A stretch of 51,612 nucleotides of DNA from an uncultured Verrucomicrobiota bacterium (lineage in GTDB: Bacteria; Verrucomicrobiota; Kiritimatiellia; JAAZAB01), in NCBI GenBank assembly GCA_964418925.1, contig CAYQNY010000001.1, positions 1 to 51,612 on the forward strand, given 5' to 3'. Below are positions 155 to 33,755 of the stretch, piece by piece. A program made the translations under genes and the position numbers. The notes under the pieces are model-generated. The model was not told the origin of the DNA, did not search any database, and saw nothing but the letters and a program-made list of their open reading frames with translations. Each line of letters begins with the position of its first letter. Within the stretch, counting starts at the first letter, position 1.

Positions 155-252
155 GGAGCTGACACAAACTAACCGCTTCAGGCTGGATATGAGCAAGCCT
201 GGTAGTTAATATGTTGAGATTGGCACTGTAAGAACCATCAGGAGAAAGTTGC

Positions 253-23076: not shown

Positions 23077-23105
23077 TTGACAAAATGGAAAAAAAAAGGC
23101 ATATT
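23077..23105 (+). promoter_or_regulatory. candidate promoter with an A9 tract in the spacer
   Basis: TTGACA (23077-23082), a 17-nt spacer containing nine consecutive A (23089-23097), then CATATT (23100-23105). It lies 43 nt upstream of the ATG at 23148. Confidence 0.3.
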
Positions 23106-23147
23106 TCATTAAACGCAATACCTGAAGAAAGAAAGGATTGGTCATTA

Positions 23148-24053
23148 ATGAAACCAACATTAGTTGTTATGGCCGCGGGTGTAGGCAGTCGTTATGGTGG
23201 TTTGAAGCAGATTGATCCGGTGGGGCCGTCAGGCGAGATTATGCTCGATTATTCCGTGTTTGATGCCATTCGCGCCGGATTTGGCAAGGTAGTGTTTATT
23301 ATCCGGCATGATATTGAGCAGGATTTTAAAGCCGTGATCGGTTCCCATTTCGTTGATCATGTGCAGGTCGAGTACGTGTTCCAGGAATTAACCGCTCTGC
23401 CCTCCGGCTTTACCGTGCCGGCGGACCGCCAAAAGCCATGGGGCACCGGTCACGCTGTTCTCCAGAGCCGGGCCATGGTTCAGGAACCGTTTGCCGTCAT
23501 CAATGCGGATGATTTTTACGGACAACGATCCTACGCCGTTCTGGCCGATTATCTGCGGAACACAGCGCCGGATGGTAATGCCTATGCCATGGTGGGGTTC
23601 AAACTGGTGAACACGCTGTCGGATCACGGCACGGTCACTCGCGGCATTTGTGAAACCGATGCGGCCCGGAATCTGATCAGCGTTGCGGAGCGGTTCAAGA
23701 TCGAAAAAACCGCCACGGGCTCCCGTTTTGAGAATGAAACCGGCCAGTGGGTGGATTGCCGGGGTGATGAAATCGCGTCCATGAACATGTTCGGATTTAC
23801 ACCCACAATGTTCACGTGGTTGGAAGAACAATTTCCGCTGTTCCTGCAAGGGGCGATGTCCAAGCCCAAGGCGGAGTTTCTGCTCCCGGCCATCGTCAAC
23901 ACGCTGATTCAGGAGCGCCGGGTCACGATGACCGTTCTGCAAACGCCGGAACCATGGTTTGGCGTCACCTACAAGGAAGACAAAACATTTGTCAGCGCCG
24001 GCATTCGGAAGCAGATTACCGCGGGCGTTTATCCCGAGCGGCTCTGGACTTAA
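23148..24053 (+). CDS. sugar-phosphate nucleotidyltransferase family protein
   Basis: N-terminal VVMAAGVGSRYGGLKQIDPVG (the GxGxR nucleotide-binding loop) and PWGTGHAV. The ATG at 23148 follows an AAAGGA ribosome-binding site. The ORF-track start at 23085 is less likely. Confidence 0.8.
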   Translation: MKPTLVVMAAGVGSRYGGLKQIDPVGPSGEIMLDYSVFDAIRAGFGKVVFIIRHDIEQDFKAVIGSHFVDHVQVEYVFQELTALPSGFTVPADRQKPWGTGHAVLQSRAMVQEPFAVINADDFYGQRSYAVLADYLRNTAPDGNAYAMVGFKLVNTLSDHGTVTRGICETDAARNLISVAERFKIEKTATGSRFENETGQWVDCRGDEIASMNMFGFTPTMFTWLEEQFPLFLQGAMSKPKAEFLLPAIVNTLIQERRVTMTVLQTPEPWFGVTYKEDKTFVSAGIRKQITAGVYPERLWT

Positions 24054-24082
24054 CGCGGCCATGCCGCGTTAAGAATTTAATT

Positions 24083-25165
24083 ATGTTTACCGGTCATGGA
24101 GGAACAGGAACCACGGAGGCCAAAACGCTGGGTTGGCCGGTTCTGGATGTGTCGGCCAGTATTGCGCCGTTTCCGGCGCCGGAAGCCGCCCTGTGTGCCT
24201 ATCATGAAGCGGCGGCGGACCTGGGACATTATCCTCAAATCGAAGGGTATGCCCTTTGCCAGGCCCTGGCCGCGCGCCTGGGACTGAATCCGGAAAATGT
24301 GCTCGTCGGCAGCGGGGCCACGGAATTTATTTACCTGATTCCCCGCGCCCTGCGGCCCGGTCGCGTGCTGGGTTTTGTTCCCGTCTATGGGGATTATGCT
24401 GATGCCGCGCGGCTGGCGGCATGTTCCTGGGTGTCTTTACCGACCATATGGGAACAGAGCTTTACACGCGACCTGGCCGGCCTGTCGGACATGGTGCGGC
24501 CGAACGACCTGGTTTTTCTCTGCAACCCCAATAATCCCACGGGCCATATGCTCGCGCCCGGCGCCATTCACGCTATGTGCTCCCGTTGTCCGCAGGTAAC
24601 CGTGGTCGTGGATGAAGCTTACGTGGAGTTTATCGGGCCCGGCGCCTCATGTCTGGATGTGGGCCTGCCGCCCAATCTGCTGGTACTGCGCAGTCCGACA
24701 AAATTTTACGCGTTGCCCGGCGTTCGACTGGGCTATTGTCTTGGCCATCGCGATTTGATAGCAGCATTGCTGGATGCCAAGGAACCGTGGACAGCCAGCG
24801 TCCCGGCGCTGGCCGTGGGACTCGCCCTGCTGAATTGTGCCGAGTACGATGCGCGGGTCCGGGACACTCTCGCCCATGAAAAATCCGCGTTGGAATCCTT
24901 GTTGACAGCCATTCCCGGGTTATCCGTTTGTTCCGGCGCGGCCAATTTCCTGTTGTGCCGGATCCGGGCCGCGGCGCCGACAGCGGCGGATTTGCGCGCC
25001 GCCTGCCTGAAGCAGGGTCTGCTTATCCGGGATGCGTCTAATTTTGAGGGCCTTGACAGTCATTATTTCCGTGTTGCCGTCCGGTTAGGGGCCGAGAATA
25101 ACCGTCTGGCTCAGATCATCCGGGAAGTCTTCAGAGTTCTTCATGCCGCTGAAACGGCACCATGA
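24083..25165 (+). CDS. cobD: PLP-dependent L-threonine-O-3-phosphate decarboxylase (aminotransferase class I/II fold)
   Basis: It begins MFTGHGG... (the HGG motif of the CobD type), then CNPNNPTG and a PLP-lysine block SPTKFYALPGVRLGY. It is adjacent to cbiB. The ORF-track start at 23816 overlaps the previous gene. Confidence 0.7.
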   Translation: MFTGHGGTGTTEAKTLGWPVLDVSASIAPFPAPEAALCAYHEAAADLGHYPQIEGYALCQALAARLGLNPENVLVGSGATEFIYLIPRALRPGRVLGFVPVYGDYADAARLAACSWVSLPTIWEQSFTRDLAGLSDMVRPNDLVFLCNPNNPTGHMLAPGAIHAMCSRCPQVTVVVDEAYVEFIGPGASCLDVGLPPNLLVLRSPTKFYALPGVRLGYCLGHRDLIAALLDAKEPWTASVPALAVGLALLNCAEYDARVRDTLAHEKSALESLLTAIPGLSVCSGAANFLLCRIRAAAPTAADLRAACLKQGLLIRDASNFEGLDSHYFRVAVRLGAENNRLAQIIREVFRVLHAAETAP

Positions 25166-25188
25166 GACTATAAAAACAAATGTTTTCA

Positions 25189-25280
25189 GCCACAGATGAA
25201 CTTGGATTTTCACGGATAATCGAGTAACTATGAAGCAGCGCAATGAACCTAGCAAGGTTTCATCCGTGTCAATCCGTGGC
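25189..25280. repeat. imperfect inverted repeat in the cobD-cbiB spacer
   Basis: GCCACAGATGAA...CACGGAT (25189-25217) faces CATCCGTG..AATCCGTGGC (25261-25280). The core arms CACGGAT and ATCCGTG occur on both sides. Confidence 0.5.
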
Positions 25281-25300
25281 TATTGGTTCGAGCAGGGATT

Positions 25301-26329
25301 ATGACCGTTGTCTCTTTTTTTCTATTGTGTGGTCTGCAGGCCCTGGTGGGCATGGTCGTTGACTTTATCATCGGTGATCCCGGTCGTTTTCCGCATCCGG
25401 CCCGGGGAGTGGGGTGGCTGATTGGCAGGCTGGAAGTCTGGCTGCGGCGGCGATGCCGGCATCTGCCAGCGGCCGGCGTCGTTCTTTGCGTGGGCACCAC
25501 GCTGTCGGTCGCGGGGCTGGCCCTGATGATCATGCTGATCCTGGCCCTGATTGACGCCGGGCATATTGCCGTCGGTTTGTCCTGGTTTGGCGGCGGATGG
25601 TCATCCGTTCCCTGGTTCAGCATCCTGGGCGGTGGCTTCCTTTGCGGTATATGGTTTTCGTGGCGTTCGCTGGGCGACGAAGCCTTGATTATCTTCCGTC
25701 TGCTGGAGGCGAACCGGTTGGAGGAAGCCCGCCGGGCCTTGGCCATGATTGTCGGTCGGGATACCCGGCATCTGGAGGAGCGCGAGATTGCGCGAGCGGC
25801 AGTCGAAACCGTGGCGGAAAACACGGTGGACGGCGGTGTGGCGCCGGTCTTTTATGCCTTGCTGGGTGGACCGGTGCTGGTGACCTTTTTCAAGGCGGCG
25901 AGCACGCTGGATTCCATGGTCGGCTATCATAATGCAAGATATTGCGATCTGGGTAAGGTATCGGCCCGGCTTGATGATGCGCTCAATTACATTCCCGCCC
26001 GTCTGTCAGTGTTGCTGATTCCGCTGGCCGCGATATTTGCCGGCCTGCATCCGCTGGCCGCGTTCCGGATCGGTCTGCGGGATCATGCGCGGCATCCGAG
26101 TCCTAATGCCGCCTGGGGCGAAAGCTGCTTTGCCGGCGCCCTGGGCGTACAGCTGGGTGGGTCCGTCACGTATGGCGGCATACCTTCTGCCAAGCCTGTG
26201 CTGGGCGATCCGGTCCGCATCCTGGTCCGCGGTGATATTCTGCGGGCTCGCCGGCTGCTGTTCTGCACGGCGGGTATCATGGCTTTTTTCGTCCTGAGTG
26301 GTATAATAATGTATTTCAATGGGCAATAA
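25301..26329 (+). CDS. cbiB: adenosylcobinamide-phosphate synthase
   Basis: Membrane protein with the hallmark N-terminal D.IIGDPGRFPHPARGVGWLIGRLE motif. The ATG at 25301 is preferred over the TTG at 25283. Confidence 0.85.
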   Translation: MTVVSFFLLCGLQALVGMVVDFIIGDPGRFPHPARGVGWLIGRLEVWLRRRCRHLPAAGVVLCVGTTLSVAGLALMIMLILALIDAGHIAVGLSWFGGGWSSVPWFSILGGGFLCGIWFSWRSLGDEALIIFRLLEANRLEEARRALAMIVGRDTRHLEEREIARAAVETVAENTVDGGVAPVFYALLGGPVLVTFFKAASTLDSMVGYHNARYCDLGKVSARLDDALNYIPARLSVLLIPLAAIFAGLHPLAAFRIGLRDHARHPSPNAAWGESCFAGALGVQLGGSVTYGGIPSAKPVLGDPVRILVRGDILRARRLLFCTAGIMAFFVLSGIIMYFNGQ

Positions 26330-26416: not shown

Positions 26417-27877
26417 ATGCGGTTGATGAAGATCATGAAATATCTTATCACTGGGATGGGATTATGGGGGCTAGCGTTTTGCGCGGGTGCGCTGGCGGGA
26501 GCGGCCGACGAGGAACTGGAGGCGTTGGTCGCGGAAGCCTTGGCGCAGAATCCGCAGGTGGCGCTGGCGAAATACCAGGTGGATGGGGCGCTCGCGCGCC
26601 GGGACGAACTGCGGGGGTTCTTTGATCCCCAGCTGGCGCTGTCTCTGGAACAGACGGATTCGGTCCTGGGCTATAACCAAAGCTCGTTGAGCGCCGGAGT
26701 GGATACGGCGGTGCTTCCCGGCGCGTATATCGGCGCCAGCCTGGAGGAGAATTATTTTAACCACCTGAAGGGCAGTTACGAATACCCGGATGTCCAAAGC
26801 GACTATGATCATCTGCTGCAAAGTATGGCCGGGCTGCGGATGGGCGTGCCGCTCCTGCGCGATCGTGGCTTTCGCCAGTGGCAGTTGTCCGATCAACAGG
26901 CGTTACGGAACTACAGTGCGGCCTGCAATCGTCTCTTGGAAGTGACGCAATCCATCCGTCACAATGTCGAACTCCGTTACATCGGGATTCTGGAATCGCT
27001 GGCATTATGGTCCGTGGCCCGGTCGGCCACGGAGCGTGTTCAGAAACTCCTGACGGAAGCCGAAGAACTCGTGAAACTCTGTACAGTGCCGGAATATCAA
27101 CTCTTTGCGGCGCGGTCCGAGGTGGCCTTGCGCCAGGAAGAGGAAACATTCGCCCGGCAGGTTTATGAAAACCGTCTTTCCCGTCTGGCCGAACTGCTGG
27201 GACAATCGGATCAGAAGCTGCAAGTGACCACGATGCCCGATGGGTTTACCCAGTGGGCGGAAACCGTGGATCTCCAGCCAACCTATTCGAAAGATCAGGC
27301 CCGGAAAGCGCGCGGTGATTACCGGCGCATCCTTGATCAAATCGGCGCCACCGAATTGGAAAAGGCGCGCAACATGGACAATCTTCGGTCGGATCTGTCA
27401 CTGCATATGGAAGTGGATTTACAGGGGGAGGACCCGGACCGGTTCATTGCCACCCAGCATTTTTTGAGTGATCATGGGCTGGGCGGCATGATCGGCCTGA
27501 CCTGGAGCCGGCCCTGGGGTTATCGGGCGGAGCATGCCCGTGTCCGCGCCCTGGATGCCGGCCTGTCGGAGCGGCGAGAATTGCTCCGGCAGATCGACCT
27601 GCGCATCCGGACGGAACTTGAGGTTGCGCACCGCGATTTCCGGCTGGCGCAGAAACGCTTTCGCCTGGTGACCAGGGCGGTATTCTCGGCCCGACAGGCG
27701 CTGGAAGCCGAGGACGAGCGTTTCCGGCTGGGTGAAGGACGTAGTCGGAACGTGCTGGACGCTCAAAAAGACTTGACGGCCGCCCTGAAACGGCGAACAG
27801 TATTGTCGGCTGAGTTGTTAAAAACATATTTTAATTTTCTCTTTGCATGCGGGTATAGCATTCAGCCGTCGCAGTGA
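26417..27877 (+). CDS. TolC-family outer-membrane efflux protein
   Basis: 486 aa with a signal peptide (LWGLAFCAGALAGAA). Two repeated coiled-coil halves carry typical OEP-family sequence (NPQVALAKYQVDGA..., ...RNVLDAQKDLTAA). Confidence 0.8.
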   Translation: MRLMKIMKYLITGMGLWGLAFCAGALAGAADEELEALVAEALAQNPQVALAKYQVDGALARRDELRGFFDPQLALSLEQTDSVLGYNQSSLSAGVDTAVLPGAYIGASLEENYFNHLKGSYEYPDVQSDYDHLLQSMAGLRMGVPLLRDRGFRQWQLSDQQALRNYSAACNRLLEVTQSIRHNVELRYIGILESLALWSVARSATERVQKLLTEAEELVKLCTVPEYQLFAARSEVALRQEEETFARQVYENRLSRLAELLGQSDQKLQVTTMPDGFTQWAETVDLQPTYSKDQARKARGDYRRILDQIGATELEKARNMDNLRSDLSLHMEVDLQGEDPDRFIATQHFLSDHGLGGMIGLTWSRPWGYRAEHARVRALDAGLSERRELLRQIDLRIRTELEVAHRDFRLAQKRFRLVTRAVFSARQALEAEDERFRLGEGRSRNVLDAQKDLTAALKRRTVLSAELLKTYFNFLFACGYSIQPSQ

Positions 27878-27995
27878 ATCCCGCCCGGCGGGGAATAGCT
27901 GGCGCGGCGTGTCATTTCGTCCGGTGACAGTAAGGCGGTATTTATTGAGTTTAACGGTTGGTTTCGACCAAGCGCCGCGTTAGGAGGAGTAGACT

Positions 27996-28820
27996 ATGGA
28001 CTGGACAATGCATCGGTTAAAGGAAATCTTTACGGGGCGGGAAGCCGTGAATGGGGAGAATCAGTCGTCGCCTCTGGCAGATACGGTCTTGCCGGATCAA
28101 CAGCGGGACGAGCTGGAACGCAACATTCTGCTCCTGGAAGACGAGTATGGGCTCAAGGAAAAGAAGCTCTACCGGCAGGCGGAAAAAGAGGTTCAGGACT
28201 CGGCGGAAGACTCGCTGAAACGCCTGCATATTATTCAGATGGGTCTCTGCCCGCGTTGCGGTGAATACCTGAGCAGGCATCTATTCACCAAGATTTGCGT
28301 GACCTGTGGCTGGAATCACTACGAAGTGCCCCGCCAAGGGCCCGTGCGCATTCACCTCCGGGACAAACCGACGCCGATCGAAGGGGAGCGCTGTTACGCC
28401 ATTGCCGCCGGTGACGTGTTTGTCGTGAAGAACGATGTGGTTATTGCCAGAATCTCCCAGGCATCCGTGAGCTGGATCGAATACAGCTGGACGAAGGAGG
28501 AGATTGACCAGCGTTATAAACAGGTGGTGGACCGCCTGAAAATCATGTGCAGCTGGTGCAACGGCCCGGCCGATCCCGAAAAAGAAGGTTTCAGTCTGGT
28601 GCAAATTGCCTTTGGATCCGGCCAGGACCGCTACGTATTTTGTTCCGAACAGTGTTATGAGGCGTTCCGGAAAATGTACCCGTCAAGAGTGCATCGGAAT
28701 TGTTACGAGCACAACTGCGCCGACTGCAATCTCTGCACCAAGCGCTATGACGATGAAACCGACGGCATTCGCCTGATCGCCAAGGATTTCCTGAAAAATA
28801 AGAACCTGAAGAAGCCGTAA
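27996..28820 (+). CDS. cytoplasmic Cys-rich protein with zinc-ribbon and TRASH-like motifs (uncharacterised)
   Basis: 274 aa with a strong AGGAGG ribosome-binding site and no signal peptide or transmembrane helix. An N-terminal coiled-coil is followed by CPRC-x12-CVTC. Further on come CSWC-x27-FCSEQCYEAF (a CxxC...CxxxC, TRASH-like spacing) and a terminal C-x5-C-x2-C-x2-C cluster. Confidence 0.65.
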   Translation: MDWTMHRLKEIFTGREAVNGENQSSPLADTVLPDQQRDELERNILLLEDEYGLKEKKLYRQAEKEVQDSAEDSLKRLHIIQMGLCPRCGEYLSRHLFTKICVTCGWNHYEVPRQGPVRIHLRDKPTPIEGERCYAIAAGDVFVVKNDVVIARISQASVSWIEYSWTKEEIDQRYKQVVDRLKIMCSWCNGPADPEKEGFSLVQIAFGSGQDRYVFCSEQCYEAFRKMYPSRVHRNCYEHNCADCNLCTKRYDDETDGIRLIAKDFLKNKNLKKP

Positions 28821-28847: not shown

Positions 28848-29981
28848 ATGTTCGTTCCGATGCCATCGTTCCGAAGCGTCAGAGCGAGGGGTCAGAGCGA
28901 ACAGCATGCCATACGGACCTGCCGGCTTACGGATCATGCCATGGGAGATGTGCGAACGACGCGTGATGGAGTCCTGCCGTTGACTTCGAAGGAACGTCGG
29001 CTGCAACGCCGGCGCCTGCTGCTGCTGATCGTGATTGGCGCGGTGCTGGTGATCAGCGCCGGTTTTGTCATTCCCGTTAATCAGTATATCATGGCCAGTG
29101 GCTATGTAACCACCGAGCGTTATGCGGAAGTCCGTTCTCCGGCCATTGGCACTGTCGCCAAAATCCTCGCGCAGTCGGGAATGCGCATGCAGGAAGGCGA
29201 CGTGCTTGTTCAGCTTGATAGCACGGAAGCGCAGGCCATCCTTGAGGAAACCATCAGCCAGGTGCAGAAAGCCGAGGCGGAAATCTCCCGGCGCGCCGCT
29301 GAAATCACCGAACGCAAGCGACGGCTGGCCGAAGACATCATCGTGGCCAAACTTCGCCTGCAGAATGCCGTCAGCCGCCTGGTCCGCACGCGGGAACTGA
29401 TGGCCAAGGGTCTGGTGGCGGGCAGTATCCTGGAGGATGACCAGCTGAAGGAAAAACTGGCTCGTGCCGAGGTGCAGTCGCTTACGAATACCGATATCAG
29501 TGTGTTCGACAAGGAGCTGATGGTGCTCCGCCATGAACTGCAGGCCCGCCGCGAGATGGTTGACCACGCTGAAACTGCCATCCGGGCCAGGGAAATCCGC
29601 GCGCCTATTTCCGGACAGGTCCTGCGTTACGAGTTTGTGGTCGGAGAGCTGGTGCGGCCGGATACGGTGCTGATGGAAATATTCGGCGGCGATCGGCAGA
29701 TTCTGAAATTGCGCGTGTCAGAGCGCCATGCCGCCCGCGTGGCAGTCGGCGCCCGTTACCGGGCCCGGCTGGCGACCTATCGAGGCTTGAGAAGCATCTG
29801 GTTTACCGGTAAAATCCAGTACCTGCGCAATGTCATTCAGTCGGAGGGACAGACCACCTACCGGGTGGCGTACTGCAGTTTTGATCCGAAGGGACGCACC
29901 GTTTCTCCGGGCACTACCGCGGAAGCCAAGGTCTATTGTGGTAAAACCTGTTTCTGGTTCTTTCTCTTTGGGGTGAATTAG
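28848..29981 (+). CDS. HlyD-family membrane fusion (periplasmic adaptor) protein
   Basis: A single transmembrane helix (LLLLIVIGAVLVISAGF) is followed by a lipoyl-like motif (SPAIGTVAKILAQSGMRMQEGDVLVQLD), a long coiled coil, and a beta-barrel ending IRAPISGQV. The start is uncertain (28848, 28860 or 28941). Confidence 0.8.
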   Translation: MFVPMPSFRSVRARGQSEQHAIRTCRLTDHAMGDVRTTRDGVLPLTSKERRLQRRRLLLLIVIGAVLVISAGFVIPVNQYIMASGYVTTERYAEVRSPAIGTVAKILAQSGMRMQEGDVLVQLDSTEAQAILEETISQVQKAEAEISRRAAEITERKRRLAEDIIVAKLRLQNAVSRLVRTRELMAKGLVAGSILEDDQLKEKLARAEVQSLTNTDISVFDKELMVLRHELQARREMVDHAETAIRAREIRAPISGQVLRYEFVVGELVRPDTVLMEIFGGDRQILKLRVSERHAARVAVGARYRARLATYRGLRSIWFTGKIQYLRNVIQSEGQTTYRVAYCSFDPKGRTVSPGTTAEAKVYCGKTCFWFFLFGVN

Positions 29982-30006: not shown

Positions 30007-31779
30007 ATGATCGGCACGCGCACATCACAGCTAAAAAAAGTCATTCAATTCCTCGCCTCCTCCCGCTGGCGGTTGTTGGGTCTCCTGCTTTTGACCGCGG
30101 TATTGTCGGTGCTGACGATGGTTCCGCCGCTCCTGATGCGGGCGTTCATTGACCGTGTGATTACCCGGGGAGAGCATTCGCTCTTTTTACCGCTGGGCAT
30201 CTGCATGGTAATGATTCCTCTCCTGGTAGCCGTGTCCAGCTACCTGCAGACCCAGGGCATTGCCTATGTCGGCCAGCGCTTTGTGTTTGATCTCCGCTGC
30301 GCCCTGTATCGGCATATGCTGAACATGTCCCTCCGGTTTTTCGGCAAGCGCAGTACGGGCATGCTGGTTCATCGTTTGATGGGCGATACCGGCATGGTTG
30401 CTCAAGCGCTGTCTGCCCAGACGATCGGCATTGTGTCGGATCTGGTGTGCGCCATGTTTGCCATCACCGCCACGGTGATATTAAACTGGCGCCTGTCCCT
30501 GCTCGTCATACTGATCGTGGCGGCCTTCCTGCTCAACTATCATTTTAATATCGATAAACTCCGTAAAGCGTCCCAAAGCTATTGGCGGTCGTTTGACCGG
30601 CTGTCGGGTGGTGTCCAGAACCGGCTGACGGCCAGCATGGTGATCAAGTCCTTCGGTAAGGAAGACCAGGAGCAAAAGGTATTTCGGGAACAGTCCGAGA
30701 CCAGCGTACTCCTGTTTCAGGATGCCAATCTGATCGGAACCGCGTTTTCACAGAACACGGTCATTATTCAGAACCTTGGGCGGGCCCTCCTGTATTTCCT
30801 GGGATGTGGAATGGTCATTCGCGGTGATATGTCCTATGGAGATGTTGTGGCCTTCACGACCTTTGCCATGCAGTTGCTGGGGCCGGCCGTCCGTTTTTCG
30901 GAGCTGGCGCCGCAGATTCAAAACGTGCGCGTTGCCATTGAGCGTATCCTGGAAATTTACAGCGAACAGCCGGAAATTCTTGAAAAGCGTGGGGCGGTGG
31001 AAATCGGCCGCTCGCGGGGACGGATTGACTTTAACCACGTGACGTTCGGCTACGAACCGGGGCGCTTGGCCGTACGGGATTTTGATCTGCACGTTCAGCC
31101 CGGTGAAACCGTGGCGCTGGTCGGGCCGACGGGGTGCGGAAAAAGCACGCTCCTGTTATTGCTCCTGCGCTTTTTTGACGTCAGTGCCGGCAGTCTGAAA
31201 CTGGACGACCGGGATATTCGTACCCTCCGGCTGAAGTCGCTGCGGGCCCAGTTTGGCATCGTTCTTCAGGAACCGCTGTTGTTTCACGTCAGCATGGCCG
31301 AAAATATCCAGTATTCGCGGGTGAACGCGAGCCAGGCCGAAATCGAAGCGGCCGCAAAAATCGCGGAAATCCATAATTTTATCCAGACTCTGCCAGATCG
31401 TTATCAGACCGTGCTGGGAAGCGAGGGCCTGCAGTTGTCCGTGGGCCAGAAACAGCGGCTGACCATTGCCCGTGCCATCCTGGCCGATCCGGCGGTGCTC
31501 ATCATGGATGAGGCCACCAGTTCGTTGGACAGCGAGTCCGAGCATGCCATTCAACTGGCCATGCGCCGGGTTCTGCGGAATCGGACGGCGTTTATTGTGG
31601 CGCATCGTTTGAGCACGATCCGTGATGCCCATCGCATTGTAGTCATGCGGGATGGCGGCATTATGGAGATCGGCAGTCACGACGAACTGATGACCGTTCC
31701 CGGCGGGCAGTATCGCCAACTGTATGAACAGCATGTTCATAAGGGGATTATCGAAGATGATAAGGATCTAAAAGATTAA
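30007..31779 (+). CDS. ABC exporter half-transporter (TMD-NBD), consensus NBD
   Basis: 590 aa with a six-helix transmembrane domain. Walker A GPTGCGKST, signature LSVGQKQR, Walker B LIMDEATSSLD, H-loop VAHRLST. Confidence 0.9.
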   Translation: MIGTRTSQLKKVIQFLASSRWRLLGLLLLTAVLSVLTMVPPLLMRAFIDRVITRGEHSLFLPLGICMVMIPLLVAVSSYLQTQGIAYVGQRFVFDLRCALYRHMLNMSLRFFGKRSTGMLVHRLMGDTGMVAQALSAQTIGIVSDLVCAMFAITATVILNWRLSLLVILIVAAFLLNYHFNIDKLRKASQSYWRSFDRLSGGVQNRLTASMVIKSFGKEDQEQKVFREQSETSVLLFQDANLIGTAFSQNTVIIQNLGRALLYFLGCGMVIRGDMSYGDVVAFTTFAMQLLGPAVRFSELAPQIQNVRVAIERILEIYSEQPEILEKRGAVEIGRSRGRIDFNHVTFGYEPGRLAVRDFDLHVQPGETVALVGPTGCGKSTLLLLLLRFFDVSAGSLKLDDRDIRTLRLKSLRAQFGIVLQEPLLFHVSMAENIQYSRVNASQAEIEAAAKIAEIHNFIQTLPDRYQTVLGSEGLQLSVGQKQRLTIARAILADPAVLIMDEATSSLDSESEHAIQLAMRRVLRNRTAFIVAHRLSTIRDAHRIVVMRDGGIMEIGSHDELMTVPGGQYRQLYEQHVHKGIIEDDKDLKD

Positions 31780-31793
31780 GTGGTCAACTTGCC

Positions 31794-33755
31794 ATGCATA
31801 TGCATCATCGTAATTATGCCTTTCGTCCGCCCTACATGGAACGGGATCGTACGGCGGGGAAGCTGAACCTGTTTGCCCGCTTTCTGCGGACCTATGTGGG
31901 CCCCTATAAATGGTCCGTGGCGTTGTGCGCTTTGCTGATGTCCCTGGACTGGTGCGGCTCGTTTTTTTTGATTGCCTATTACAGCCGGGTGGTGGTGGAT
32001 TCAATCCTGGTTGTTCAGCCGGCGCTGGAGTCACCCGCGTCAATGCCGCGGGGACGATATACAACGATGCCCCGGATCAGCAGAGGGGACTTAAAGTCAT
32101 CCGCGTCATCGCGGCCCCGGGAAAGTATGGGCCGGAGAATTGATCGGGGGATTCAGGTGTCGCCCCGGCCGCCGGATGCCAACCGGCGGTTATGGCTTAT
32201 ATTTCTCCTATATGTAGCCACGCTGGTGACAGGCAATATTTTAACCCGCGTGGCGTGGCGGCGGCGCATCATGATTGGCCAGCGCATTACCGCCAGGCTC
32301 CGCGATGATGTGCATGCAAAGGTGCTGAAATTGTCACTGGCCTACCATACCGCTCATACGCCGGGGCGTCTTCAGTCCCGTATTCTTTGGGATGTCAACG
32401 TTGTTCAGGAACAGCTGATGAATATTATTATCGGATCCATCAGTCAGGTTTTTATGATCCTGATCGGATTTATCCTGTTGTTTATCATCGAGTGGCGCAT
32501 GGCGCTGATCGTGCTGGTATGCCTCCCGTTCTATGTGTTGATATATCGGGTGGCCCGACCGTATCTTCGCCGGGTGCACCGGGAGATGAGCCATACCAAT
32601 GCCTGCCTTTACGGGCTGGTGTCGCAGAAACTGGATGCAATCAAAATGATCCAGGCCTATGGCCGGGAAGGGCAGGAATACCTGACGTTTCACCGGCTGG
32701 CGGCCTGCTTTTTCAGGGATGCCCGGTTTCAAATCCGGCTGGGGGCGGCCAGCGGGCAACTGGCGAAATTGTTGAGTGCCCTGGGCACCAGCGGCGCGAT
32801 TTTCCTTTACGGAGTGTATCAGGTACTCCAGGGGGGCATGTCGCTGGGTCAGATGCTCTTTGCCTACGGAACGGCGGCCACGCTTTTCGCGCCGGTACTC
32901 AGCCTGAGTTCCCTCAACGTGATGATGTCCAACCTGCTGGTGTCTCTGAATCGCCTGACGAATATCATGGATGAACCCATGCGCATCAAGGAGGCTCCGA
33001 ATGCTGTGGAGTTTCCATCACCTTTGCGATCGGGCCTCACCGTGAATCATCTTCAGTTCCAATTCGATGCCGAAAGTGAGCCGGTTTTACAGGAGGTGTC
33101 CATCAATATTCCCGCCGGCTCCAGTTTCTGTATCATGGGCGCCAGCGGCAGCGGCAAGAGTACGTTGTTAAGCCTGCTGGCCCGTTTGTATGACGCCGAC
33201 AGCGGGGAAATCCTGATTGATGGCGTGCCCCTGAAAACAATTAGGATTGCCTCCCTCCGCCGACACATTGCTCTGGTGCCTCAGGAGGCGCAAATTCTCA
33301 GCGGAACGGTGCGTGACAATATCTGCTATGGGTATTCAAATGCCCATGCGGAGGATATTATGGCGGCGGCCCGCGCGGCGGAATTTCATGATTTTGTCAT
33401 GACCCTGCCGGTGCAGTATGAAACCCTGCTGGGGGAAAAGGGCACCAGCCTCTCCGGCGGCCAGAGACAGCGTCTGGCGCTGGCCCGCGCGCTGTTGACC
33501 CGGCCGGAAGTGCTTCTTCTCGACGACTGCACCTCGGCGTTGGATGCGGAAACCGAACGGCGCATTCAGCAGACATTGACGTCGGCGCTGGCCGGCAAAA
33601 CCGCTGTCATTGTGTCACAGCGCATATCAATGGCTCAGCGCTGTCACCGGATTTGTGTGCTGGATAACGGCATTATCTCGGAGGAAGGAACCCACGAAGA
33701 ACTCCTGACCCAGGGCGGGTTTTATGCCCGTCTCCATGCCCAACAGACCGAATAG
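31794..33755 (+). CDS. ABC exporter half-transporter (TMD-NBD), degenerate catalytic residues
   Basis: 653 aa. Walker A GASGSGKST, signature LSGGQRQR, Walker B LLLDDCTSALD (the catalytic Glu position is Asp), H-loop position VSQRIS (Gln instead of His). There is an extra hydrophilic segment of about 58 aa between TM1 and TM2. Confidence 0.9.
   Translation: MHMHHRNYAFRPPYMERDRTAGKLNLFARFLRTYVGPYKWSVALCALLMSLDWCGSFFLIAYYSRVVVDSILVVQPALESPASMPRGRYTTMPRISRGDLKSSASSRPRESMGRRIDRGIQVSPRPPDANRRLWLIFLLYVATLVTGNILTRVAWRRRIMIGQRITARLRDDVHAKVLKLSLAYHTAHTPGRLQSRILWDVNVVQEQLMNIIIGSISQVFMILIGFILLFIIEWRMALIVLVCLPFYVLIYRVARPYLRRVHREMSHTNACLYGLVSQKLDAIKMIQAYGREGQEYLTFHRLAACFFRDARFQIRLGAASGQLAKLLSALGTSGAIFLYGVYQVLQGGMSLGQMLFAYGTAATLFAPVLSLSSLNVMMSNLLVSLNRLTNIMDEPMRIKEAPNAVEFPSPLRSGLTVNHLQFQFDAESEPVLQEVSINIPAGSSFCIMGASGSGKSTLLSLLARLYDADSGEILIDGVPLKTIRIASLRRHIALVPQEAQILSGTVRDNICYGYSNAHAEDIMAAARAAEFHDFVMTLPVQYETLLGEKGTSLSGGQRQRLALARALLTRPEVLLLDDCTSALDAETERRIQQTLTSALAGKTAVIVSQRISMAQRCHRICVLDNGIISEEGTHEELLTQGGFYARLHAQQTE

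Follow-up and report, generated by a model that had tools for sequence, protein, structure and literature searches.

What is a soluble, cysteine-rich protein doing among the genes of an envelope exporter? The window, by which we mean the whole 51,612-nucleotide stretch of DNA that was analysed, raises this question through a protein here called X, which the initial annotation had placed inside an exporter operon. The gene order OEP, X, MFP, ABC1, ABC2 bears out that placement (Table 1).

Table 1. Positions of X, its regions and its neighbours in the window
Feature	Position	Strand	Evidence
Outer-membrane factor, OEP (TolC/OEP family)	26417..27877	+	PF02321 at 75 bits
X, 274-aa cytoplasmic Cys-rich protein	27996..28820	+	ORF, RBS, homologue clusters, invariant Cys/His
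X, acidic N-terminal region, residues 1-82	27996..28241	+	pI 4.85; AF2 helix 34-81
X, putative C4 zinc ribbon, residues 83-110, C85-x2-C88-x12-C101-x2-C104	28242..28325	+	Invariant Cys; pLDDT 71-83
X, predicted small beta-barrel domain, residues about 111-165	28326..28490	+	Six predicted strands, pLDDT 74-89
X, putative TRASH/YHS-like treble-clef module, residues 185-227, C185-x2-C188-x27-C216-x3-C220	28548..28676	+	Invariant Cys; sub-threshold profile matches
X, third cluster, residues 233-247, H233-x2-C236-x4-C241-x2-C244-x2-C247	28692..28736	+	Five residues invariant
X, C-terminal amphipathic helix (G-I-R-x-x-A-K-D-F-L) and basic tail	28764..28820	+	Predicted helix 259-270
Membrane-fusion/periplasmic adaptor, MFP (HlyD family)	28941..29981	+	HlyD_3, HlyD_D23
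ABC1 half-transporter	30007..31779	+	Canonical Walker B (LIMDE), H-loop His, signature LSVGQ
ABC2 half-transporter	31794..33755	+	Degenerate ATP site (Walker B LLLDD, H-loop Gln), signature LSGGQ

The X reading frame is a genuine gene, which starts with ATG and has a strong ribosome-binding site, AGGAGG (positions 27982-27987), 7 nt upstream. Cysteines (residues 85, 88, 101, 104, 133, 185, 188, 216, 220, 236, 241, 244 and 247) make up 4.7% of X, compared with 0.8-1.5% across the four neighbouring proteins. Together with the invariance of the clustered residues, this difference places the cysteine richness of X beyond chance: all 81 full-length homologues examined keep the 12 clustered cysteines and H233, and these residues still do not vary at identities as low as 28%. 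The earlier proposal is thus not refuted on the ground it had named, a lack of cysteine conservation among homologues. C133, which lies outside the clusters, is variable. No transmembrane helix or signal peptide was found in X (maximum Kyte-Doolittle average over 19 residues, 1.39), in agreement with the cytoplasmic location first assigned to it, and its N-terminus is acidic as had been described. This N-terminal region is predicted to form one long helix (AF2, pLDDT about 65); it is weakly conserved apart from an AAEDSLKxLH motif and is missing in short forms of the protein. With a pI of about 8 the C-terminal half of X is basic, and the predicted helix at its end is kept in Kiritimatiellia and Lentisphaeria and missing in divergent members and one short form. 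The AF2 model of full-length X has a pLDDT of 66 and a model of the C-terminal domain, built on 76 sequences, one of 64; Foldseek searches of the PDB with both models gave no match at E <=1e-3.

The cysteines fall into three clusters, of which the initial annotation had read the first as CPRC-x12-CVTC and the second as CSWC-x27-CSEQC. Both patterns were recovered exactly, at C85, C88, C101 and C104 and at C185, C188, C216 and C220, respectively. The first has the two C-x2-C knuckles, about 10-20 residues apart, that define a zinc ribbon, with strands predicted around both. It aligns weakly, cysteines in register, with the ribbons of bL32, S27ae/eS31, eL37 and RpoM, and no specific zinc-ribbon family scored above its cutoff. 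The predicted barrel that follows resembles Sm/Hfq-like small barrels weakly in structure (Foldseek E 0.16-0.3, target TM-score about 0.6, about 54 residues), and no match of the barrel to Sm/Hfq was found at the sequence level. A PilZ-like c-di-GMP-binding barrel was considered and rejected, as X has no PilZ match and the R-x-x-x-R and D-x-S-x-x-G motifs are absent or unconserved.

The middle cluster had been assigned tentatively to the TRASH/YHS type. A weak signal of this kind does exist. YHS (PF04945) scores 18.3-19.6 bits against a cutoff of 30.3, over a stretch of 15 residues, and weak YHS matches occur in 13 of 20 and in 63 of 76 family members. Further sub-threshold matches were to zf-FCS (best E 7e-5, in one member), TRASH_HVO_1752_C (0.0097) and DUF7576 (2e-4), and weak profile matches linked the cluster to the PHN chain of phenol hydroxylase and the MYM finger of ZMYM5. 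In the AF2 prediction, residues 200-215 form a hairpin and residues 218-227 a helix (pLDDT 70-86), and the best Foldseek matches of the C-terminal domain are Rlp24/eL24 chains (E 9e-3 to 5e-2). The assignment is weakly supported, with all profile scores below cutoff and the Rlp24/eL24 group as the closest fold (E about 1e-2); the middle cluster may be called weakly TRASH/YHS-like from its profile matches and model. TRASH, YHS, zf-FCS (MYM) and ribosomal L24e treble clefs are metal-binding modules of the Pfam TRASH clan. X shares with them the C-x2-C ... C-x3-C arrangement, the F-C-S-x-x-C-x-x-x-F motif that encloses the second pair, a beta-hairpin predicted to lead into a helix, and weak family matches in most members. 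It differs in that no member reaches a gathering score, that 27 residues separate the two cysteine pairs of the window protein (and more in the homologue P0130) where the initial annotation quoted 19-22, and that the module runs directly into a second invariant H/C4 cluster, absent from those families, within a new multi-domain protein. For the TRASH domain, PMC4700571 cites Ettema et al. 2003.

That second cluster, the third in X as a whole, contains the four cysteines first reported, at C236, C241, C244 and C247, with the spacing C-x4-C-x2-C-x2-C and not C-x5 at the first step. It sits in the most conserved stretch of the protein, YPxRVHRNCYE, and has a pLDDT below 55 in both AF2 models. Because the cluster resists modelling, it may hold either zinc or an iron-sulfur centre. 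Fer4_21 scores 13.8 bits against a cutoff of 35 and is sub-threshold in 53 of 76 members (best E 0.0019); X has C-x4-C-x2-C-x2-C and no C-P in place of the ferredoxin-type C-x2-C-x2-C-x3-C-P. An iron-sulfur cluster of another type would be compatible with this result.

X had been described as an orphan, which holds in the sense that it belongs to no named family but not in the sense that it stands alone. Its homologues form at least 186 clusters, present in 150 species genomes, and are restricted to Kiritimatiellia, Lentisphaeria and related PVC bacteria. Scans of X with Pfam, NCBIfam, PADLOC and PHROGs gave nothing above cutoff, so that the profile search which had been recommended yielded no confident assignment to an unrelated family. 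PDB sequence and profile searches produced no significant match, with weak zinc-ribbon, MYM and phenol-hydroxylase similarities only, and literature searches found no description of the family. In joining a TRASH-like treble clef to an H/C4 cluster, the X family sets up a new domain, with no Pfam or NCBIfam entry and no solved structure. Short forms of 131-176 aa retain only this C-terminal module of eight cysteines and a histidine, lack the zinc ribbon, the barrel and the acidic N-terminal region, and are still encoded between OEP and MFP. Among 1.84 billion representatives, no Rosetta-stone fusion of X to ABC or MFP was found. An apparent 805-aa fusion in one genome (G035) was rejected as an open frame extending upstream in high-GC DNA. 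The longest match, a single sequence of 380 aa (P0146), combines a TonB-C-like region, recognised by eye, with the X C-terminal module and is possibly an assembly artefact.

The neighbours of X have the composition of a tripartite ABC-type envelope exporter, with PF02321, PF13437/PF16576 and PF00664 plus PF00005 all above their cutoffs. The exporter does not qualify as a type I secretion system: the ABC genes score 382 and 335 bits against the type_I_sec_HlyB cutoff of 725.55, MFP 78 bits against 208.65 for type_I_hlyD, and OEP 26.8 bits against 225.15 for type_I_sec_TolC. Profile scans found no C39 or C39-like domain in ABC1 or ABC2, and no conserved candidate substrate appeared in 80 loci. 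The closest half-size structures for ABC1 and ABC2 are generic (TM287/288, Sav1866, MsbA and TmrAB), and ABC2 carries a long insertion in its TM1-TM2 loop. The true start of MFP is probably M32 of the reading frame that opens at 28848. Its cytoplasmic N-tail of 25 residues (tail peptide MGDVRTTRDGVLPLTSKERRLQRRR) is strongly conserved (MG[DE]YRTTxGExxP...RRR), and the N-tail of HlyD-type adaptors is a cytoplasmic interaction site.

X and this exporter are closely coupled in related genomes. X and an MFP orthologue are both present in 18 of 41 genomes and both missing from the other 23, a perfect co-occurrence. MFP lies directly downstream of X in 63 of 67 named loci, OEP directly upstream in 61 of 70, and the gene order of the exporter is kept in 42 of 50 loci with enough flanking sequence. 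The four loci with no downstream MFP are split operons, whose genomes carry MFP-ABC1 at a second site. Divergent X genes (28-33% identity) occur in the order ABC-ABC-X with no adjacent MFP or OEP, and the ABC pairs beside them are orthologous to ABC1/ABC2 and have the degenerate site in common; another divergent X gene converges on an ABC NBD gene. In about 17 loci the X gene adjoins that of MFP closely or overlaps it (gaps of -72 to +10 nt), which would be compatible with translational coupling. Median identity is 53% for X, 56% for ABC1, 50% for ABC2, 47% for MFP and 35% for OEP, and conservation on a level with the ABC subunits would suit a core component inside the cell. The co-occurrence, together with synteny that survives rearrangement, links X to the exporter very strongly and backs a functional tie between the two. 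Among 80 loci there was no other broadly conserved neighbour of X; recurrent neighbours were lineage-local, namely a GT9-like gene (11 loci, judged by eye) and an MFS gene (10 loci).

The same evidence leaves very little room for the idea that X is an operon passenger with a function unrelated to transport. Against it stand the perfect co-occurrence with the MFP orthologue and a linkage that survives at least three gene arrangements as well as split operons, and we strongly disfavour it as a very remote prospect.

Since X carries three invariant cysteine clusters and always accompanies one particular ABC export pump of two subunits, it is most likely a previously undescribed metal-binding subunit of this pump or a regulator of it. 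We put at an even chance the full reading that it is a dedicated metal-binding cytoplasmic accessory subunit or regulator which docks on the exporter. Metal binding by X, contact with the pump and a direction of regulation are what we infer, in the following form. The exporter would be an asymmetric ABCB-type heterodimer of ABC1 and ABC2 with one degenerate ATP site, presumably extended by a HlyD-type adaptor and a TolC-type channel in Kiritimatiellia and Lentisphaeria. X is presumed to hold three Cys4-type metal sites, and its functional core would be the C-terminal module of about 95 residues, with the TRASH-like treble clef followed by H-x2-C-x4-C-x2-C-x2-C. Stabilised by metal, this module may dock on the cytoplasmic face of the pump, with candidate sites on the nucleotide-binding domains, on the adaptor's cytoplasmic tail of 25 residues or on both, and once docked might control ATPase activity and gating or recruit cargo. 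The zinc ribbon, small beta-barrel and acidic helix would then be lineage-specific additions, lost in some lineages. A more specific version makes X a fifth subunit by which the heterodimeric ABCB exporter becomes sensor-gated and spans the envelope: a labile zinc-thiolate or iron-sulfur centre in the C-terminal double cluster would, on oxidation or metal loss, alter the clamping of the NBDs and adaptor tail, so that export is switched by redox or metal state. We think this version unlikely, and we know of no description of redox or metal sensor gating for tripartite ABC systems.

Several observations weigh against the subunit reading. Equally strong coupling would fit an expression regulator, a cargo-modifying factor or a chaperone; we found no homology of X to known transporter accessory proteins; and one divergent member (L102) adjoins Opp-type importer ATPases, not an ABCB pair. 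Local regulators likewise co-occur with and adjoin their targets, and X could be a dedicated regulator of exporter gene expression, a nucleic-acid-binding zinc-finger protein, possibly metal- or redox-responsive, with operon DNA or mRNA, not the pump, as its target. Archaeal transcription regulators can carry TRASH modules as their sensor domains, which would suit such a role, as would the basic C-terminal half of X and the RNA-binding nature of its weak structural neighbours (Rlp24/eL24 for the C-terminal domain, Sm/Hfq-like proteins for the barrel, and ribosomal zinc ribbons). Every one of these structural similarities has E >1e-3, however, profile scans detected no HTH or recognised DNA- or RNA-binding family, and the short forms dispense with both zinc ribbon and barrel. 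The X gene also sits among structural genes, often overlapping that of MFP, and conservation equal to that of the ABC subunits would be unusual in a local regulator. An expression regulator is in our judgement improbable, and similarly improbable is a metallochaperone or cargo carrier that hands a Cys-bound metal ion, metal or iron-sulfur species to the ABC pair for export. Soluble metallochaperones deliver metal to metal pumps, and the TRASH/YHS-like signal in the middle cluster, the sub-threshold Fer4_21 matches and the mostly anoxic habitats of the hosts, as judged by their names, would all be in keeping with this. Metal trafficking was the role first proposed for TRASH domains, and the ABCB-type transporter LmABCB3, with a part ascribed to it in the biogenesis of heme and Fe-S, carries one in cis (PMC4700571). 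The TRASH, YHS and Fer4 matches of X nevertheless all lie under family cutoffs, the ABC pair has no specific similarity to Atm1-type or metal exporters, and no metal-resistance genes or metal regulators were found near X. In eL24, in MYM fingers and in phenol hydroxylase, moreover, the zinc site of the same treble-clef fold has a structural role only.

Substrates and helpers of type I systems are often encoded beside ABC, MFP and OMP genes, which raises the alternative that X is itself secreted by a type-I-like system, or is a cytoplasmic chaperone or modifier for an unlinked substrate. Its C-terminal amphipathic helix recalls the location of C-terminal secretion signals, but this helix is missing in divergent X proteins, whose genes adjoin ABC pairs and have neither MFP nor OEP next to them. 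Substrates of type I systems are exported in the unfolded state and tend to be acidic and poor in cysteine, whereas the twelve invariant, presumably metal-liganding cysteines of X imply folding in the cytoplasm. Few proteins of the module are as well conserved as X, which has no RTX repeats, and the ABC genes encode no C39 peptidase or C39-like domain. We consider this explanation quite improbable.

The usual account of tripartite ABC exporters and type I secretion systems is one of machines with three components. The coupling of X to such a system points to a fourth kind of component, a soluble, cysteine-rich and probably metal-binding protein that throughout two PVC classes is conserved like the ATPase subunits and does not occur apart from them, and, if X does bind the pump, to a new type of ABC-transporter accessory subunit. 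X may also offer a handle on the export cargo of a widespread, uncharacterised pump in anaerobic glycan-degrading bacteria of sediments, digesters and guts. One carrier, Oligosphaera ethanolica DSM 24202, is in culture, which makes the question of X testable.

Several known systems resemble parts of this arrangement. In the MlaFEDB ABC transporter, the STAS-domain subunit MlaB binds the MlaF ATPase, and by functional analogy only, it is like X in the role proposed here: small and soluble, located in the cytoplasm, encoded within the transporter operon and reserved for a single ABC system. The two have no relation in sequence or fold; MlaB has no metal site, and Mla is a lipid transporter of a different ABC fold. 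LmABCB3 of Leishmania major also associates a TRASH-type Cys module with an ABCB-type exporter (PMC4700571), but there the module belongs in cis to the transporter itself, as part of the N-terminal extension of a mitochondrial protein of a eukaryote, which lacks a zinc ribbon, barrel, third cluster, adaptor and outer-membrane partners. HlyB-HlyD-TolC and MacAB-TolC share with the present system an OEP-family channel, an adaptor of the HlyD family, with a single TM helix and its N-tail in the cytoplasm, and ABC exporters. In contrast to these, the ABC proteins encoded here form a predicted asymmetric heterodimer with no C39 or C39-like domain, scores are far under the NCBIfam type I cutoffs, and a cytoplasmic Cys-rich protein is a fixed fifth component; the sections consulted of a large tripartite-system review (PMC8277102) mention no Cys-rich cytoplasmic subunit. 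As in TM287/288, TmrAB and BmrCD, the two subunits divide the work: Walker B reads D-E in one, which also has the H-loop His, and D-D in the other, whose H-loop residue is not His. Of these systems, TM287/288 and TmrAB count among the half-size structures closest to ABC1 and ABC2. To our knowledge, TM287/288, TmrAB and BmrCD act alone in the inner membrane, with no dedicated soluble partner, adaptor or channel, whereas genes for a soluble partner, an adaptor and a channel all accompany ABC1 and ABC2.

Five co-directional genes in the window form a module, encoding an OEP/TolC-family outer-membrane channel, the Cys-rich protein under study (X), an HlyD-family adaptor and two ABC half-transporters (ABC1 and ABC2). 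X lies between the channel and adaptor genes, inside an exporter operon as the initial annotation had placed it, and its start codon follows an AGGAGG sequence by 7 nt. Cysteine makes up 4.7% of its residues (positions 85, 88, 101, 104, 133, 185, 188, 216, 220, 236, 241, 244 and 247), compared with 0.8-1.5% in the four flanking proteins. All three cysteine clusters first described were present, except that the third opens with C-x4-C and not C-x5-C, an error of one residue. The N-terminus is acidic, as previously read, with a pI of 4.85 over residues 1-82. We also agree that X has no signal peptide or membrane helix, because its Kyte-Doolittle maximum over 19-residue windows was just 1.39.

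Features of the exporter genes (window positions) and of X (residues; elements with pLDDT or marked AlphaFold2 are predicted)
Feature	Position	Strand	Details
OEP/TolC-family channel	26417-27877	co-directional with X	
X ORF	27996-28820	+	ATG start, 274 aa
ABC1 half-transporter	30007-31779		Walker B LIMDE, H-loop AHRLST, signature LSVGQ
ABC2 half-transporter	31794-33755		Walker B LLLDD, H-loop Gln (VSQRIS), signature LSGGQ
X helix	residues 34-81		single long helix, AlphaFold2
X cluster 1 (zinc ribbon)	between helix 34-81 and beta-domain		CPRC-x12-CVTC, AlphaFold2
X small beta-domain	residues 117-163		six-stranded, pLDDT 74-89
X helix	residues 167-180		AlphaFold2
X cluster 2 (TRASH/YHS-like)			CSWC-x27-CSEQC
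X hairpin, then helix	residues 200-215, 218-227		AlphaFold2
X cluster 3			C-x4-C-x2-C-x2-C; with His, H-x2-C-x4-C-x2-C-x2-C; left unmodelled, pLDDT < 50
X C-terminal helix	residues 259-270		AlphaFold2

X had been called an orphan, and this did not hold. A word-indexed search found 186 homologue clusters at E <= 1e-3, and X turned up in 150 species when one genome of each was scanned. All clusters with a functional name were called "hypothetical protein", except for three JGI entries named "ribosomal protein L32"; the organism labels were Kiritimatiellia, Lentisphaerae and, once, Candidatus Pacebacteria. When 1.84 billion representatives at 50% identity were searched exhaustively with HMMER, just 45 matched. 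The family is narrow; X occurred in 39 of 401 sampled genomes of the phylum. By the depositors' own taxon labels, the 80 loci kept were from Kiritimatiellia, Lentisphaeria/Victivallales/Oligosphaera or the broader PVC group or Verrucomicrobiota, with one "uncultured bacterium"; they include a cultured carrier, Oligosphaera ethanolica DSM 24202. Aligning 81 full-length sequences showed the 12 clustered cysteines and His233 to be invariant throughout and the thirteenth cysteine (C133) to be variable. The same 12 cysteines and His233 were unchanged in members of only 28-33% identity, which argues against the possibility, raised at the outset, that the cysteines are not conserved. Four representatives (P0131, P0148, P0158 and P0160) turn into low-complexity sequence rich in Ala/Thr/Ser/Arg or Pro within or soon past the beta-domain region, and look like frameshifted metagenome gene calls rather than true variants. 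A single representative of 380 aa (P0146) joins an N-terminal membrane anchor and, by eye, a TonB-C-like region to the C-terminal module of X; this could be a genuine variant architecture or could have arisen from faulty assembly or a frameshift.

The distribution of X follows that of the exporter. Of 41 related genomes, 18 have X and 23 lack it; the adaptor orthologue shows an identical pattern, occurring in each of those 18 and in none of those 23. Among the 80 named loci, the adaptor gene was directly downstream of X in 63 of the 67 with enough flank, the channel gene was directly upstream in 61 of 70, and no other neighbour was broadly conserved. The adaptor, ABC1 and ABC2 genes followed X in 42 of 50 loci. 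In the four loci lacking a downstream adaptor, the genomes carry adaptor-ABC1 at a second site, and these are therefore split operons. Median identities to the window proteins in the 41 loci with all five genes were 56% for ABC1, 53% for X, 50% for ABC2, 47% for the adaptor and 35% for the channel, and X ranked first or second in 27 of these loci. Some Kiritimatiellia families have an X of only 131-176 aa, which keeps the C-terminal eight-Cys-plus-His module alone and is still encoded between the channel and adaptor genes. This C-terminal double-cluster module is the conserved core of X.

The divergent members (28-33% identity) came from metagenomic contigs; GroEL on the contig of locus L106 had its nearest relatives in MAGs labelled Chlamydiota, Omnitrophota or Verrucomicrobiae. 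On two contigs X lay downstream of a pair of ABC genes (ABC-ABC-X), and neither an adaptor nor a channel gene was close by; these ABC pairs were one-to-one orthologues of ABC1 and ABC2 with the same D-E/D-D Walker B asymmetry. The conserved partner of X is the asymmetric ABC1/ABC2 heterodimer. A third divergent X was convergent with an ABC ATPase gene. Downstream of the fourth (P0126, locus L102, 6753-10468) lay genes for an unannotated 334-aa protein and for two ATPases of the Opp type (oligo_HPY) rather than the ABCB pair, so that X-like proteins might also pair with other ABC ATPases.

ABC1 and ABC2 are generic ABCB-type exporters, and the half-size structures closest to them were TM287/288, Sav1866, MsbA and TmrAB. 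Their motif asymmetry indicates that one ATP site is of the consensus type and the other degenerate. Exporter components scored far under the NCBIfam cutoffs for type I secretion, and the window ABC proteins lack a C39 or C39-like domain; we therefore name the system a tripartite ABC exporter and do not treat it as an established type I secretion system. In the adaptor, the membrane helix is preceded by a cytoplasmic tail of ~25 residues that is strongly conserved, MG-[DE]-Y-R-T-T-x-G-E-x-x-P...R-R-R. Since all homologues begin at MG[DE]YRTT, the true adaptor start is probably M32 of the window ORF (28941) rather than 28848.

The profile searches proposed in the initial annotation gave X no significant family assignment. 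Nothing exceeded the Pfam cutoffs, where the sole match was to YHS (18 bits against a cutoff of 30.3, over 15 residues); NCBIfam gave one chance-level L37e match, and PADLOC and PHROGs gave none. Across the C-terminal domains, sub-threshold matches recurred consistently for YHS (63 of 76), Fer4_21 (53 of 76) and DUF7576 (49 of 76), and, with members scanned separately, for zf-FCS and TRASH_HVO_1752_C in a few members each. Against PDB sequences, the family profile weakly matched ribosomal and RpoM zinc ribbons at cluster 1, and a phenol hydroxylase chain (PHN) and the ZMYM5 MYM finger at cluster 2.

The full-length AlphaFold2 model (26-sequence alignment, mean pLDDT 66) had no Foldseek match in the PDB at E <= 1e-3, and its beta-domain weakly resembled Sm/Hfq-type small barrels (E >= 0.16). 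Cluster 3 failed again when the C-terminal 115 residues were modelled from 76 sequences. In fold, this second model came closest (E 9e-3 to 5e-2) to chain "u" of pre-60S particles and to chains LW/LX of 80S ribosomes; going by the chain names, we take these to be Rlp24 and eL24. These proteins belong to the same Pfam clan as TRASH and YHS. The proposed TRASH/YHS reading of cluster 2 therefore stands as a weak fold and profile likeness, for which "TRASH-like treble clef" is a reasonable description; membership is not established, because the match is below the profile cutoff and the spacer is outside the quoted length. No counterpart of the His-Cys motif of cluster 3 was identified. Triplets of the form C-x2-C-x2-C are able to bind either zinc, as CXXC-type fingers do, or three of the irons in an Fe-S cluster.

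The sequence features of X, their invariance and the genomic coupling to the exporter are shown by these data, whereas metal binding, physical contact with the pump and the mode of action are inferred. The most likely reading, to which we give about even odds, is that X is a soluble metal-stabilised subunit or regulator acting at the pump's cytoplasmic face. It could dock on the nucleotide-binding domains, on the adaptor tail or on both, and would control pump activity or recruit cargo. The nearest functional analogy is MlaB on MlaF, with no homology. A metallochaperone or metal-cargo carrier has a precedent in TRASH domains, including one fused to the ABCB transporter LmABCB3 (PMC4700571), and we regard this role as improbable, to the same degree as that of a dedicated nucleic-acid-binding regulator of the operon. 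That X is a substrate of the exporter or a substrate chaperone is somewhat less probable still, given its high conservation, the invariance of its putative metal ligands and the contexts without adaptor and channel. An unrelated operon passenger is very unlikely.

Neither the components of the exporter nor the zinc-ribbon and treble-clef modules are new in kind. The X family, its domain combination and the invariant cluster 3 seem to be undescribed, and we found no description of the family in the literature. The same seems true of the role proposed for X, which in two bacterial classes and a more distant PVC branch would be an obligatory additional part of a heterodimeric ABC exporter. In the passages of a comprehensive review of tripartite systems (PMC8277102) that deal with heterodimeric ABC exporters, no such subunit is mentioned. 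The cultured carrier and simple recombinant experiments make X testable.

Several minor features accompany the module. The first 31 codons of the adaptor ORF (28848-28940) are probably untranslated, making the gap after X 120 nt and not 27 nt. Just upstream of the channel gene was a GT9-type heptosyltransferase-like gene (by eye, VLVVKLSSLGDLFHALP motif) in 11 Kiritimatiellia loci (e.g. L019, 7374-8411) and an MFS transporter gene in 10 Lentisphaeria loci; neither is universal. In the window, three genes upstream of the exporter (23085-26329), read from translations only, appear to encode a nucleotidyltransferase, a class I/II aminotransferase-like protein and a membrane protein resembling CobD/CbiB (cobalamin lower-ligand pathway), and are not kept beside X elsewhere. 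Between the first two membrane helices of ABC2 (residues ~60-125) is a long insertion rich in Arg, Ser and Pro, presumably a periplasmic loop; the orthologues in Oligosphaera (672 aa) and the related genome G035 (682 aa) are of like length.
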